Assembly: GCF_017302985.1 (NCBI RefSeq)
Contig: NZ_JAFIMU010000011.1
Coordinates: 1 to 61,685 of the forward strand
From: Corallococcus macrosporus
Lineage (GTDB): Bacteria > Myxococcota > Myxococcia > Myxococcales > Myxococcaceae
Reading direction: 5' to 3'
Length of the DNA: 61,685 bases
The position numbers and the translations under genes are program-made. The notes under the pieces were generated by a model. It had not been told where the DNA came from. It ran no database searches and was given only the letters and a program-made list of their open reading frames with translations. Position 1 is the stretch's first letter. Each line of letters opens with the position of its first letter. This document shows, piece after piece, positions 15,060 through 19,740 of this stretch.

Positions 15060-15953
15060 ATGTCCCTGCTTCCCGACGACTTCGCGTATCTGCGCAAGCG
15101 CGTGCTGCGCCGCTCCGGGCTCGTGCTGGAGCCCGACACGCACGCGCTGGTGGAGACGCGGCTCACGCCGCTCATGCGCGAGGAGCATCTGCCGGACATC
15201 TCCGCCCTGGTCGCGCGGCTTCGCTCACAGCCGGAGAGCAGCCCGCTCCACCAGCGGCTGGCGGAGGCGCTGGCCAACCACGAGACGGCCTTCTTCCGCG
15301 ACGCGCCGGTGTTCGACGCCCTGCGCACCACGGTCCTGCCCGCCCTGCTGGCGAAGCGCTCCCGCACGCGGACGCTGCGCATCTGGTGCGCGGCGTGCGC
15401 CTACGGCCAGGAGCCCTACAGCGTGGCGATGACGCTGGCGGAGGCCGGGCTGCTCATCACCGGCTGGACGGTGCGCATCCTCGCCACGGACTTCTCCACC
15501 CGCGCGCTCATGCGCGCCAGCGAGGCCCGCTACGACGCGCAGGAGATCCACCGGGGCCTGTCACCCAAGCTGCGCCAGCGCTACTTCCATCAGGACCGCG
15601 ACAAATGGCGGCTGAACGAACAGGTGCGCAGGCCGGTGGAGTTCCGGCCGCTCAACCTGATGGACGACTTCCCACCGGAAGCGCCCGTGGACCTCGTCTT
15701 CCTTCGCAACGTGATGATCTACTGGGACGCGACCACCCGGCACGCGGTGCTCGCGCGCGTGCGGCGGATGATCCACGCGGAGGGCTACCTGGTGCTGGGC
15801 GCCGCGGAGGCCTCTCCCCTGGGCGAGGACGGCTTCACGCGGCACCTGATTGGACAGACCAGTTGGTACCGCCCCACGCCCGCGTCGCAGACCAGCGCGG
15901 GCGCCCCCATGCGGGATGCGCCGCGCCCTCCCCGCTCCGGCGCTACACCTTGA
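15060..15953 (+). CDS. cheR: Chemotaxis protein methyltransferase CheR
   Basis: 'TAFFRDAPVFDAL...RIWCAACAYGQEPYSVAMTL...VFLRNVMIYWD' are CheR SAM-methyltransferase motifs. ATG lies 3 nt after the cheB stop. Confidence 0.9.
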   Translation: MSLLPDDFAYLRKRVLRRSGLVLEPDTHALVETRLTPLMREEHLPDISALVARLRSQPESSPLHQRLAEALANHETAFFRDAPVFDALRTTVLPALLAKRSRTRTLRIWCAACAYGQEPYSVAMTLAEAGLLITGWTVRILATDFSTRALMRASEARYDAQEIHRGLSPKLRQRYFHQDRDKWRLNEQVRRPVEFRPLNLMDDFPPEAPVDLVFLRNVMIYWDATTRHAVLARVRRMIHAEGYLVLGAAEASPLGEDGFTRHLIGQTSWYRPTPASQTSAGAPMRDAPRPPRSGATP

Positions 15954-16863
15954 GGCGGATGGCGCCGGGCAGCAGCGTCATGGTGCAGGGCAGCCGGCCC
16001 GGCGTCTCGCCGTCCACGTCCAGGAACACGTCGCCGTCCTCCGACTCCGCGTGGATCGTGCGGCAGCGCAGCCGCCGCGTGCCCTTCCAGGTGACGTGGT
16101 CGCCGTTGTAGACGCCCTTCGACTTGAGGACGAAGTCGGACAGGCCGTAGTTGGACCAGATGGTGACGTCGAACAGGCCGTCGTGCGTCACCGCGTCGGG
16201 CGCGACGAACATGCCGCTGCCGAAGTAGCGCCCGTTGGCCACGGCCACCGCGGTGACGCTCACCGTCTCCGGCGTGCCGCCATCCACCGTGAGGCGCACC
16301 TGCCGCTCCTGGTACTTCAGGAGGCCCTTCACGGTGCCCCACATGAAGCTCAGGTTGCCGCCCAGCGCCTTGCTGCCCTGGTTCACCTCGCGGGCCACCA
16401 CCGCACTCACGCCAAACGAGGCGATGTTGGCGAAGAAGCGCGTGGCCGGGTTGCCGTCGTTGCCGATGAACTCCAGCCGTCCCACGTCGAACGGCTCCGT
16501 CTTCTCCGTGCGCAGCCGCTCCAGCGCGGACGTCAGCTCCAGGTCCCACCCGAAGGTGCGGCGGAAGTCTCCGCCGGTGCCGCGGGGCAGCAGGCCCAAC
16601 GCCGCCTGCGGGTTGATGACCTTCCCGTCGCGGAAGAAGCCGTTGGTGACCTCGTTGAGGGTGCCGTCACCGCCCACCGCGACGATGCACTCATAGCCGT
16701 CGTCGATGGCCTGCCGCGCCAGACGCGCCGCATCCATGCCGCCGCTGGTGAAGCCGTGCCCGAACTCGCCGAGCACCTTGCCCACCTGCGCGGAGATCTC
16801 CACCCATCGCTTCCCCGTCTGCCCGTTGGCGCTGCGCGGGTTGACCACGAGGAACGTCTTCAT
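15943..16863 (-). CDS. Diacylglycerol-kinase catalytic-domain lipid kinase (YegS/BmrU family)
   Basis: 'FLVVNPRSANGQ...ECIVAVGGDGTLNEVTNG' is the DAGK_cat signature. 3' end convergently overlaps cheR by 11 nt. Confidence 0.75.
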   Translation of the reverse strand: MKTFLVVNPRSANGQTGKRWVEISAQVGKVLGEFGHGFTSGGMDAARLARQAIDDGYECIVAVGGDGTLNEVTNGFFRDGKVINPQAALGLLPRGTGGDFRRTFGWDLELTSALERLRTEKTEPFDVGRLEFIGNDGNPATRFFANIASFGVSAVVAREVNQGSKALGGNLSFMWGTVKGLLKYQERQVRLTVDGGTPETVSVTAVAVANGRYFGSGMFVAPDAVTHDGLFDVTIWSNYGLSDFVLKSKGVYNGDHVTWKGTRRLRCRTIHAESEDGDVFLDVDGETPGRLPCTMTLLPGAIRLKV

Positions 16864-17022
16864 TCAGTGCCTTCTCCCTGCTGCCAGAACGGCCTGTTTA
16901 CGCAATTGTGCGCCCAGGCTCCACTCTGTGACCCGCAGGAGGACCCCGCCGGCCGGGGTGTTTGTCACCCAGACCGCTCCGTGCTGGGCTTCCCGCCCCC
17001 CCTCTTCCGCCCCGGACCCCGA

Positions 17023-17700
17023 GTGAAAGTCCCCACCGCCACCGAGCAGCTCGCGCCCCACCGGGAGGCCACGCGCGCCCTGGACTGGGCGCTGCCCGCG
17101 CTCCGGGCGGACCTGGCCGCGGCGGCGCGGCAGCCCTTCCGGGAGACGGGGACCCAGGAGGACTTCCTCCTGCGCCATGACGCACCGGCCCATGAAACGC
17201 AGGGGGCCGCGCGGACGGAGCGCTTCAAGCAGGCCCTGGCCCGGGTGCGGCGACTCGCGGACGCGGGCGAGCCGCTGACCTTCGCCCGGATGCTGGAGGT
17301 CCAGTCGGAGCTGCTGGGCGGGCCCACGGGCTTTCGCGACGGCGACGCCTTCGCGTGGGGTGGCGCGCACCGCTACGCGCTCGAGCCCGGGCTGGAGGCG
17401 GCCTTCCGCGAGAAGGTGGAGGCGGACGCTCGCGAGGACCGCCATCCGGTGGCGCATGCCACGCGGTTGTACCTGGACCTGTGTTTCTTCCATCCCTTCC
17501 CGGACGGCAACGCGCGCGCGGCGCGGCTGTGGCTGGAATACATGCTGCGCCGGGGCCGGCTGCCCACACCGCCGCTGGCGCCCGTGGTGCTGTGGCCCAA
17601 GCGTCCGGGAGACGCGGTGAACTACACGCGGCTGGCAAGGCTGCTGGCCCGGACCATCGCGGGGCCGGACGCCCCGTGCCGCAATGAGGTGCCTGAATGA
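17023..17700 (+). CDS. Fic/Fido domain protein (variant motif HPFPDGNARAAR)
   Basis: Fic core motif 'HPFPDGNARAARLWLEYML'. Start uncertain: GTG at 17023 is the first plausible start after the divergent lipid-kinase gene. Stop TGA at 17698-17700 overlaps the next ATG (ATGA). Confidence 0.75.
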   Translation: MKVPTATEQLAPHREATRALDWALPALRADLAAAARQPFRETGTQEDFLLRHDAPAHETQGAARTERFKQALARVRRLADAGEPLTFARMLEVQSELLGGPTGFRDGDAFAWGGAHRYALEPGLEAAFREKVEADAREDRHPVAHATRLYLDLCFFHPFPDGNARAARLWLEYMLRRGRLPTPPLAPVVLWPKRPGDAVNYTRLARLLARTIAGPDAPCRNEVPE

Positions 17701-18362
17701 GCAGTGATACTTCGGCGTTCACGTGGCGGCGCATCCGCGACAGCCTGGATGTCTATTCGCCGGAGCAACTGGCCTCCCGGCTTCGGGAGGCGTTGGCTCC
17801 GCTGCGGGTCGGCAGCATCCATCCGAGCCGGCTCAAGCAGGCGCAGAACGCCGTCCAGGATCTGCTCAAGAACGAGCTGGGGCCCTGGTACACCATGAGC
17901 GGCCTGCCCCTGGGCAATGAAGTCCTGGGGGGCTATTGCTGGTGCCACTCGTTCTTCAACCAGAACCCGCCGCATCGCACGACGGATGTGAATGAGAACA
18001 TTCAGCTCATGCTGACGTCGCTGGAGCGGATCCGTTCGTTTCTGTACGCGCTGGACGGCGTGTATCAGACCGCGCGCCGTCAGATCGAGGCAGCGGGCGA
18101 CGACAAGGCCCTCCGGGCGAAGGCGCTCGAGGAAGGGCTGGTGCGGAGCGTGGACCTGACGGCGGAGACGACGTCCTGCGAGGAGACCTGGTACTCGGTC
18201 GCGCAGGACGCCATGTCGTGGTGCATCGAGGCGATGGGGCTGCCCGTATCGGACGCCACGGAGGAGCTGCTGGACACCGCCTTCGTCTTCGAGTCCTGGA
18301 TCGCGCCCCCTCCGGAAGTCCTCCGGGCCGCGGCGGCGCGGGTGGCGGAGATAGCGGTATGA
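17697..18362 (+). CDS. Hypothetical protein, paralogue A of a tandem pair (GGYCWCH motif family)
   Basis: Translationally coupled to Fic (ATGA). Shares 'LGPWYT..GL.LGNE..GGYCWCH.FF...P...DV..NIQLM...LER', 'EE.WY..A..A.SW...A.GL' and 'F.FESW' with the downstream ORF. Confidence 0.5.
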   Translation: MSSDTSAFTWRRIRDSLDVYSPEQLASRLREALAPLRVGSIHPSRLKQAQNAVQDLLKNELGPWYTMSGLPLGNEVLGGYCWCHSFFNQNPPHRTTDVNENIQLMLTSLERIRSFLYALDGVYQTARRQIEAAGDDKALRAKALEEGLVRSVDLTAETTSCEETWYSVAQDAMSWCIEAMGLPVSDATEELLDTAFVFESWIAPPPEVLRAAAARVAEIAV

Positions 18363-19054
18363 CCCGGTCGGCCCTGGGCCACTGGTTGCTCATCCGCGAC
18401 AGCCTGGAGGGGTATGCGCCGGAGAAGCTCATCCGCCTGCTGCGCGAATACCTGGCGCCGCGCGTGCCTCCGGGGACGCGCAAGCTCACGGACGAGCAGC
18501 ACGACACGATGGCCAAACACGTCCAGCGGCTCCTCGGCCAGAACCTGGGCCCCTGGTACACGGAGACGGGCCTGTACCTGGGCAATGAGAGCTTCGGCGG
18601 CTACTGCTGGTGCCATCGCTTCTTCAGACAGAAGCCCACGCCGAACATGGACGTGGAATACAACATCCAGCTCATGATCGACGCGCTGGAGCGGTCACGC
18701 GAATGGCTGTTCAAGCTGGACGCCCACTTCCAGGCATTGAAGCGCGACCTGCCCTCCGCCCCCGAGGACACGGACATCCGGTTGCTGGCGCTGGCGGACG
18801 GCATCGTCACCACGATGAACCTCACCATCGAAGCCATGGGCGGCGAGGAGGCCTGGTACACCTTCGCGGATGAGGCGCTGTCGTGGATGTTCGACGCCCT
18901 CGGCCTGCGCCCGGGCTATCAGGCCGGCAAGCTGATGCGAAAGCTGTTCGCCTTCGAGTCCTGGCACACGCCGGGCGAGTGGGAGCTGCGCGACTCCGCG
19001 GAGAAGGTGGCGGCGGCCGTCGTGGAGGACGAGGGCCGCCGGCACACGCACTGA
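18359..19054 (+). CDS. Hypothetical protein, paralogue B of a tandem pair (GGYCWCH motif family)
   Basis: ATG overlaps the paralogue A stop (ATGA). Clear paralogy to 17697..18362 over the whole length. Confidence 0.5.
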   Translation: MTRSALGHWLLIRDSLEGYAPEKLIRLLREYLAPRVPPGTRKLTDEQHDTMAKHVQRLLGQNLGPWYTETGLYLGNESFGGYCWCHRFFRQKPTPNMDVEYNIQLMIDALERSREWLFKLDAHFQALKRDLPSAPEDTDIRLLALADGIVTTMNLTIEAMGGEEAWYTFADEALSWMFDALGLRPGYQAGKLMRKLFAFESWHTPGEWELRDSAEKVAAAVVEDEGRRHTH

Positions 19055-19071
19055 ATCACGCGCCCGTCCCT

Positions 19072-19740
19072 TCAGTGGATGGGCTTCCCGGGCTTCAGCC
19101 GGGCCTGCCCGCCCGAGCCTCCCTTCACCTCGATGCGCTTGCCCTGCGGCTGGGGCTGCGGAAGCTTCAGGGAGACCTCCAGCACGCCGTTCTCGAAGTT
19201 CGCCTGGACCGTCTCCGTGTCGATGCCTTCTGGCAGCGGGATGGCCCGGTGGAACGAACCGGTGCTGCGCTCCAGGCTCCAGACCCCTTCGGTCTCCGAC
19301 TCCTCCTCCTTCTCGAAGCTGCGCTCGCCCTCAATCACAAGCATGTCGCTCAGCAGCTCGACGTGGATGTCCTCCTGCTTCATTCCCGGTAGGTCTGCCT
19401 TCACGATGAGATTGCCGTTGCGCTCCAGCACGTCCACCTGCGGTGACCAGAGGCCCTCGTCCAGCACGCTGCTCCGGCCGATGAGGCCCCTGCCCCCGAA
19501 GTCGGTGAAGAGCTGATCCATGTCCTCCATCATCCGGCGCAGCAGTCCAAACGGGCTCAGGGGAATGGCCTCCCGCCCGGTGATGGGGGCGTAGGACTCG
19601 CGGCGGGTGATGCCCGTACCCTTCCTGGGCTCCTGGGCCTGCGAGCCGCCGCCCTGCACGTCGTCGGCCTGGGTGTTCTTCACGGCGGGCGAGGAAGAGG
19701 GCCCCCCCTTCGCCCCCGGATTCGGGTTGTTCGTTGCCAT
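19072..19740 (-). CDS. Hsp20/alpha-crystallin small heat-shock protein with disordered N-terminal extension
   Basis: Alpha-crystallin domain 'WSPQVDVLERNGNLIVKADLPGMKQEDIHVELLSDMLVIEGER...FHRAIPLPEGIDTETVQANFENGVLEVSL'. Strong SD GGGGGAGGA 4 nt before the ATG. Confidence 0.85.
   Translation of the reverse strand: MATNNPNPGAKGGPSSSPAVKNTQADDVQGGGSQAQEPRKGTGITRRESYAPITGREAIPLSPFGLLRRMMEDMDQLFTDFGGRGLIGRSSVLDEGLWSPQVDVLERNGNLIVKADLPGMKQEDIHVELLSDMLVIEGERSFEKEEESETEGVWSLERSTGSFHRAIPLPEGIDTETVQANFENGVLEVSLKLPQPQPQGKRIEVKGGSGGQARLKPGKPIH

Follow-up and report, generated by a model that had tools for sequence, protein, structure and literature searches.

What does a short Fic protein do with two tandem copies of a protein that matches no known family? 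This question is raised by three open reading frames (ORFs) on the forward strand of a Corallococcus macrosporus contig, at positions 17023-19054 of the 61,685-nucleotide stretch analyzed here (contig NZ_JAFIMU010000011.1; hereafter, the window). In this order, they encode a Fic-domain protein and two paralogues, which we call partners A and B. Our results indicate that Fic and its partner are very probably the two parts of one obligate enzyme, split in this window and fused elsewhere. In addition, residue covariation suggests that the partner may gate the Fic active site by pairing an acidic residue with an arginine of the Fic motif, which would leave the complex switched off or de-modifying. 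We give this reading a probability of roughly one half. The three genes are:

17023 (GTG) to 17700, forward strand: Fic-domain gene, 225 amino acids (PF02661 match, conserved frame and start, and substitution rates)
17697-18362, forward strand: partner paralogue A, 221 amino acids; predicted all-alpha; derived, faster-evolving copy
18359-19054, forward strand: partner paralogue B, 231 amino acids; ancestral-type copy, present in every Corallococcus locus

The evidence for an obligate pair comes from gene neighbourhoods. The Myxococcaceae set comprised 15 related loci (Corallococcus species, two Pyxidicoccus, and one metagenome-assembled genome, MAG), or 16 with the window, and all of them share the same synteny, with the Fic gene immediately 5' of the partner gene or genes. 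We scored 25 further loci outside this set with local profiles. In 24 of the 24 informative ones, the partner is fused to a Fic protein of the same clade or directly abuts it, usually with an overlap; the 25th, contig L035, stops ~100 nt past the partner gene and is hence uninformative about a Fic neighbour. A first-pass annotation, made from the window sequence alone, had proposed that the Fic and GGYCWCH proteins form a functional module, and had named frequent occurrence of the latter without Fic neighbours as one observation that would speak against it. The proposal stands, as no partner lacking a Fic neighbour or fusion was seen in the 16 Myxococcaceae and 24 other informative loci.

In split forms, the partner gene can stand either before or after the Fic gene. 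Fused proteins, with the partner at the N-terminus and Fic at the C-terminus (~375-550 amino acids), account for 22 of 150 listed representatives and are found in Nannocystis, Minicystis, a Myxococcota MAG, Kitasatospora, and Streptomyces, all of them annotated merely as 'Fic family protein'. The clade spans Myxococcota, Actinomycetota, and metagenomes, and the pair in the window is its Corallococcus form, not a peculiarity of one operon. We modelled the fused Nannocystis protein P0176 with AlphaFold2 (AF2), with a predicted local distance difference test (pLDDT) of 94.2 and a predicted template modelling score (pTM) of 0.88 over 433 residues; according to this model, the two domains of the fused form would pack into a single compact body. 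Foldseek returned FICD as the best match of P0176, and the nearest solved relative by sequence profile is C. elegans FIC-1 (E = 1.5e-11). Searches for the module in 72,556 plasmids, 50,697 phages, and a viral contig collection gave no match, and a mobile-element or phage origin is unsupported.

The partner itself is a candidate new domain family. An exhaustive HMMER profile search over 1.84 billion representatives, taken at 50% identity, found 213 family members at E <= 1e-3, of which 68 reach E <= 1e-10, and neither Pfam nor NCBIfam has a family for them. Word-index protein searches recover only a fraction of the members (23 and 27 matches, with B itself unlisted). A and B had been described in the first-pass annotation as tandem paralogues with shared motifs, without a known domain, and unlike any known type of Fic antitoxin. 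All three descriptions are borne out. The two proteins align with 44% identity over 219 residues (E = 6e-59), share LGPWY, GGYCWCH.FF, EE.WY, and FESW..P, and have no match in Pfam, NCBIfam, or PADLOC, nor is there a family match in the PDB. In agreement with these data, 48 diverse family members showed no consistent match to Pfam, and the family profile gave only chance-level matches against the PDB, the best being RecA (E = 0.0013). We found no known structural relative, the Foldseek search with P0176 matching the Fic half only. The AF2 model of A (pLDDT 84.7, pTM 0.85) has ten helices. Recurrent signatures of the family include [D/E]-A/S-W-Y and F-x-S-W-x-x-P, besides a Cys/His motif located as follows:

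17928..17957 (aa 78-87), forward strand: Cys/His motif of A, GGYCWCHSFF, in a loop that AF2 predicts with lower confidence
18596..18625 (aa 80-89), forward strand: Cys/His motif of B, GGYCWCHRFF, from the sequence

Among 133 near-full-length representatives, 51 carry this motif as CxC[HC], 50 as WCCxxHS, and 32 in neither form. Since about a quarter (32/133) have neither form, the motif, a possible metal-binding site, is not essential to the family. Limited term searches of the open-access literature, aimed at Fic proteins of Streptomyces or myxobacteria, yielded no paper that describes the family or this Fic clade.

How could such a partner act on Fic? The feature that ties it to the active site appears to be not the Cys/His motif, but a Txxx[D/E] motif. 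The relevant positions in the window are:

17491..17526 (aa 157-168), forward strand: Fic signature motif HPFPDGNARAAR, invariant in 16/16 Myxococcaceae loci
18171..18194, forward strand: candidate gating motif of A, T159-S-C-E-E163-T-W-Y, compared with the family motif T-x-x-x-[D/E]-[A/G/T/S]-W-Y
18836..18859, forward strand: candidate gating motif of B, M160-G-G-E-E164-A-W-Y, with the acid kept and Thr replaced by Met

We compared 86 partner/Fic pairs, denoting by R(2) the second Arg of the Fic motif. The Thr of the family motif is present in 83 of them. Its spacing to the acid is that of the Fic inhibition motif (S/T)xxxE(G/N), although the residues are non-canonical; the inhibitory Glu of the latter out-competes the gamma-phosphate of ATP for R(2) (PMC3667792). 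Whenever Fic retains R(2), in 73 of 73 pairs, the partner has D or E at the acid position. The other 13 pairs have A, M, L, or F in place of R(2), and their acid position holds S in nine, C in one, G in one, and D in two. With the addition of L040, which has Thr at R(2) and keeps the Asp, the acid is replaced in 11 of 14 R(2)-less cases. Thirteen partner columns reach >=95% conservation when R(2) is present. Of these, the acid alone changes in the R(2)-less group, and no other of the 229 partner columns discriminates the R(2) state as well. By mutual information with average product correction (APC), the acid/R(2) pair ranks 15 of 41,184 inter-domain column pairs, and 9 after dropping six top artefacts of overlapping profile ends. 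An acidic Fic residue four positions (one helical turn) past R(2) co-changes with both R(2) and the partner acid.

The R(2)-less clade (P0193-P0201, P0203-P0207; L023, L025, L028, L029, L033) is actinobacterial or metagenomic and includes Kitasatospora, Streptomyces, and Micromonospora. Its R(2) is replaced by L, F, M, or A, and the acidic residue four positions on is lost as well, as mostly is the partner acid, a pattern that suggests a changed activity in these members. L040 (1214-1765), in which R(2) is Thr and the partner Asp is kept, lies outside the tree sample. Two further candidate roles were considered. The Glu of FESW was rejected as the inhibitory residue, this position varying among E, T, Q, S, and N. 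The idea that the acid completes a Cys/His metal site as its fourth ligand is unsupported, since WCCxxHS is retained in the R(2)-less clade and the acid is lost there.

These observations suggest a model in which Fic, A, and B would be one two-component enzyme, made of a catalytic Fic and two alternative copies of an all-helical partner subunit. The partner would be seated on the Fic active site, where its acid would act as the inhibitory glutamate of alpha-inh does, blocking the gamma-phosphate site and holding the nucleotide in a non-transferring state. The complex would then be switched off, or it might run in reverse and remove the modification, as in the Glu-bearing complexes FICD (PMC6826200) and Fic-1-AntF (PMC13327609), which are deAMPylases. 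Transfer onto the target protein would begin once the partner is released or rearranged. More speculatively, the Cys/His cluster of the partner could be a redox or metal sensor that triggers the switch, and A and B could serve as two regulatory inputs to one Fic.

In a general form, this scheme would amount to a fourth mode of Fic control, whereby a Cys/His-bearing sensor domain, separate or fused, inserts an alpha-inh-like acid and toggles between modification and de-modification on a redox or metal signal, with A and B feeding in two signals. We offer this extension tentatively and consider the odds to be against it. The physiological stimulus that relieves alpha-inh inhibition was stated to be unknown in 2013 (PMC3667792). 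The clade offers a new handle on Fic switching, in the form of a large conserved partner domain with a sensor-like Cys/His motif, found fused, split, and duplicated in culturable, genetically studied groups (myxobacteria and relatives of Streptomyces). If acid-arginine gating is true, the three-class scheme of Fic regulation would be extended, and E163G or E164G would be a defined mutation that unlocks the enzyme and provides a route to its target.

Several observations weigh against gating by the partner acid. In the tree, the R(2)-less pairs group into one clade, and therefore few independent events lie behind the covariation: R(2) would have been lost once, and the acid would then have been replaced independently two or three times. 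Moreover, the acid is kept in three R(2)-less cases (L023, L029, and L040). In the AF2 models of A and P0176, the Thr is predicted to end one helix and the acid to cap the next, unlike alpha-inh, which is one continuous helix. Comparison of the partner with the Fic domain by hhalign revealed no detectable relation (probability 0.4%); therefore, the partner is not a degenerate Fic domain. The Gly-to-Ala change in the anion nest of the Fic motif could mean a different chemistry or weak activity. Finally, in B of the window the conserved Thr is Met and the adjacent Cys is Gly, and this is so in this strain only. At 18836-18844 (aa 160-162), it reads A-M-G-G-E-E, and all other B-type orthologues have [A/E/H]-T-G-C-[E/N]-E. 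Copy A of the window retains T-S-C. From these sequences, the regulatory role may have shifted to A in C. macrosporus, or B may be relaxed.

Is the Fic protein an active enzyme? It matches PF02661 over residues 85-175 (38.1 bits, cut-off 24), which places it in the Fic/Fido superfamily, and its sequence relatives in the PDB are FICD, NmFic, and similar proteins. As previously annotated, it is a short Fic with Ala in place of the second Gly of GNGR: in HPFPDGNARAAR, this Gly is replaced, and His, Asp, Asn, and both Arg are retained. The replacement is the sole departure from the strict signature HxFx(D/E)GNGRxxR, which is linked to AMPylation (PMC3667792). At this position, a main-chain amide of the anion nest contacts the beta-phosphate (PMC3667792). 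The replacement is a trait of the whole clade: of 57 relatives that include a Fic part, 48 have Ala at motif position 8, eight have Gly, and one has Ser. The retained residues, together with the presence of a flap, are consistent with catalytic competence. The flap is located at:

17332..17376 (aa 104-118), forward strand: predicted beta-hairpin flap (target dock) FRDGDAFAWGGAHRY, from alignment to fused homologues

In Fic enzymes, the flap serves as a target dock (PMC3667792). FRDGDAFAWGGAHRY aligns with FRT..AFAK.GRERY of the fused homologues, and the conserved FR..AFA..G..RY is in line with the flap of an AMPylating Fic; the hairpin itself is seen in P0176, the fused homologue modelled with AF2, as predicted strands E327-329 and E334-336 immediately before the active-site helices.

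A Fic ORF that is a pseudogene with a non-functional start, the other finding that the first-pass annotation had named as contrary to its proposal, is not borne out. The frame of 225 amino acids and the GTG start are kept in 14/14 Corallococcus-type loci; for the two Pyxidicoccus Fic genes, the alignment begins only at residue 7. Ratios of nonsynonymous to synonymous substitution rates (dN/dS) against relatives are 0.22-0.41 for Fic, 0.28-0.59 for A, and 0.26-0.45 for B, compared with 0.08-0.26 for the neighbouring lipid kinase. Fic, A, and B are real genes under purifying selection, which evolve faster than this housekeeping neighbour.

Other relationships between Fic and its partner have to be weighed against gating. 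The partner could be a targeting or substrate-presenting subunit, or itself a substrate, through the near-invariant hydroxyl residues T154, Y161, and S197 of the profile. Fic enzymes commonly auto-modify, and a partner of ~220 amino acids is far larger than the carrier of an inhibitory helix needs to be. Several aromatic and hydroxyl residues elsewhere in the partner (W, Y, and F-x-S-W-x-x-P) are invariant, and they would also fit this role, as would the extra domains of some partners, such as the ~300-amino acid C-terminal extension of P0062 and P0077; fusion with compact packing suits any obligate subunit. However, it leaves unexplained why the acid alone is lost, and solely where R(2) is lost. 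Furthermore, the hydroxyl residues remain invariant in the R(2)-less clade, and the neighbourhoods that we read contain no recurrent third gene that could be a candidate target. We regard a substrate or targeting role as less likely than gating, but still in contention. A different doubt concerns catalysis itself, as Fic could be a non-catalytic scaffold or pseudo-enzyme in a purely structural or binding pair. The motif departs from strict HxFx(D/E)GNGRxxR (PMC3667792), and one clade additionally has no R(2). Yet His, Asp, Asn, R(1), and mostly R(2) are invariant across very divergent sequences, position 8 is confined to the small residues A, G, and S, and the flap segment is among the best-conserved parts. 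These features indicate selection on an active site, and we consider a pseudo-enzyme very unlikely.

The likeness to toxin-antitoxin or enzyme-plus-partner modules, drawn in the first-pass annotation, survives only in part. The module is confirmed, but a classical mobile toxin-antitoxin system is disfavoured. A type II system of the FicT/FicA kind, with Fic as a growth-arresting toxin and A and B as labile antitoxins, would account for the small, translationally coupled genes, for an alpha-inh-like motif in a separate protein, and for the retention of at least one partner copy with Fic in every case. Weak PADLOC matches of Fic to Fic-containing candidate defence systems, and one relative that adjoins a HEPN/nucleotidyltransferase pair, also point in this direction. 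On the other hand, the 22 fused single polypeptides (of 133 near-full-length representatives) are incompatible with differential turnover of an antitoxin. The partner is 3-4 times the size of the known FicA antitoxins and lies downstream of Fic in the window, the module occupies one syntenic chromosomal locus across Corallococcus and Pyxidicoccus, diverging in step with its neighbours, and the plasmid, phage, and viral collections are devoid of it. On account of the frequent fusions, the size of the partner, the fixed chromosomal locus, and the absence from mobile collections, we judge such a system to be improbable.

Gating by the partner acid can be set beside the known modes of Fic regulation. 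Like the class I pairs (VbhT/VbhA, EcFicT/EcFicA, and Fic-1/AntF), the module joins a Fic to a separately encoded, translationally linked protein that carries a Thr/Ser-x-x-x-acid-small motif, and its acid, as judged from covariation, is apparently tied to R(2) (PMC3667792; PMC13327609). Unlike in class I, the partner has 221-231 amino acids, lies downstream of Fic, and is duplicated. Known class I Fic antitoxins have roughly 60-70 amino acids. The small antitoxin immediately upstream of Fic that defines class I is therefore not what we found: the partners of the window (221/231 amino acids) are downstream, and other lineages have both gene orders and fusions. The partner is also unrelated to the Fic domain and without a known structural relative, in a comparison that did not include antitoxin sequences. 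Most family members have Asp as the acid, with Ala instead of Gly/Asn after it. The module is chromosomal, syntenic, and often fused, and its Fic motif has Ala at the second Gly.

With class II (SoFic, FICD/HYPE, and C. elegans FIC-1), the fused relatives have in common a regulatory element N-terminal to the Fic core. FICD and FIC-1 are also the nearest solved relatives by profile and by fold, and the transfer/removal switch of FICD is a plausible parallel (PMC6826200). However, the N-terminal part is here a whole 215-amino acid domain with conserved motifs of its own, not a single helix beside alpha-1, and in the P0176 model the candidate motif is predicted to lie ~100 residues before the first Fic helix. 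No inhibition motif in the Fic polypeptide before alpha-1 is found clade-wide. A candidate class II inhibitory helix in the Fic N-terminus (T42-G-T-Q-E46-D) was rejected, being kept within Myxococcaceae only; in the rest of the clade, the column of E46 is Arg or variable, and D-G-H is conserved nearby instead.

Doc/Phd and AnkX resemble the module in a deviation within the GNGR anion nest. The Doc motif, HxFx(D/N)(A/G)NKR, has Lys at position 8 and goes with a changed chemistry. In AnkX, whose motif is HxFxDANGRxxV, an anion-nest deviation likewise accompanies changed chemistry (PMC3667792). In HPFPDGNARAAR, position 8 is Ala and not the Lys of Doc, the first Gly and both Arg are kept, and no Phd-like antitoxin is present. 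XopAC/AvrAC (NF041381) is the best NCBIfam match of the Fic core (residues 58-182, E = 1.5e-8), but at 33.8 bits against a cut-off of 450; there are neither leucine-rich repeats (LRR) nor secretion features here, in what is a chromosomal gene of a soil bacterium. The Fic systems of PADLOC (SoFic, PDC-S24, and PDC-S04) gave partial core matches only (E = 8e-8 to 2e-3, 15.6-29.5 bits), and none with A or B. Altogether, the protein is best described as a Fic whose partner or regulatory domain is large, conserved, and new. It falls outside classes I, II, and III, whose defining features, as tested, were absent.

Why are there two partners in the window? Both A and B are present in 9 of the 16 Myxococcaceae loci (window counted), and the other seven have a single copy. 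Five Corallococcus species (single-copy loci L008-L011 and L015) have B but lack A, and in C. coralloides KYC2213 (L005, 6001-6452) the match to A is limited to its first 140 residues. In a neighbour-joining (NJ) tree, the A copies form one clade, B and all single Corallococcus copies form its sister clade, and the single Pyxidicoccus copies branch outside both. The simplest reading of these sequences would be one duplication at the base of Corallococcus, after which B would have persisted as the ancestral-type copy and at least three losses of A took place. Copy A is a later, dispensable duplicate, local to Corallococcus. One candidate locus, L016 from a Bacillota MAG, was rejected as spurious, its match lying opposite a different gene.

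Some relatives carry additional parts. P0062 and P0077 (L037 424-2013, L038 298-1836), as well as P0064 and P0085, have ~510 amino acids, consisting of a CWCH-type partner domain and a ~300-residue C-terminal extension without a Pfam match. The extension was rejected as a second partner or Fic domain, having no detectable relation to either profile. P0062 and P0077, the two whose context was read, are each encoded directly 3' of a Fic of this clade. P0056 (328 amino acids) has an N-terminal extension of ~100 residues containing RLVYADWLEERGEDVRAEYLRLE, and P0047 (277 amino acids) one of ~60 residues; RLVYADWLEERGEDVRAEYLRLE presumably resembles a repeat-companion segment common in Planctomycetes and myxobacteria. 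P0151 (2169 amino acids) gives eight weak matches to positions 136-200 of the partner profile, which could reflect internal repeats or a chance similarity in helical composition. The partial protein P0208 of Kibdelosporangium lantanae (663 amino acids) combines the Fic domain of this clade (HPFPDGNGRAAM) with condensation and AMP-binding domains of the non-ribosomal peptide synthetase (NRPS) type, according to a precomputed Pfam list. As for unusual neighbours, a HEPN/minimal nucleotidyltransferase pair, a known toxin-antitoxin type, lies directly beside the module in L037 (2094-2820), and a NACHT gene adjoins it in L019.

Regarding the layout of the operon, both ATGA overlaps that had been annotated between the three ORFs were located. 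The Fic stop overlaps the ATG of A at 17697-17700, and the stop of A overlaps the ATG of B at 18359-18362; the Fic/partner overlap is kept in 15/16 Myxococcaceae loci. Protein A is 100% identical to JYK02_32965. CheB and CheR genes (+) and a YegS-type lipid kinase gene (-, 15943-16863) lie upstream, and a convergent Hsp20 gene (-), a PhzF-family gene (-), a DUF481 gene, and a gene for P5C (pyrroline-5-carboxylate) reductase lie downstream. One conserved element lies in the 159 nt that separate the divergent lipid kinase (-) and Fic (+) genes:

16961..16990, forward strand: conserved upstream block TTTGTCACCC ... GCTGGGCT, kept 5' of the GTG start in Corallococcus loci

This block is possibly a promoter or operator, judging from its conservation; a sigma-70 consensus scan gave no promoter-like match in the upstream intergenic region. 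The window yielded three terminator-like matches, all within coding sequence, and no Rfam families or tRNAs. Only 17 nt separate the end of B from that of the convergent Hsp20 gene (19054-19072), with no terminator-like hairpin in between, and the adjacency of Hsp20 to the module is retained in most Corallococcus loci. Finally, the Fic frame is open for 1.17 kb 5' of the real GTG (15850-17700, forward strand), running antisense through the entire lipid kinase gene. This extension is an artefact of a GC-rich genome, and it could lure gene callers to a 616-amino acid 'Fic'.

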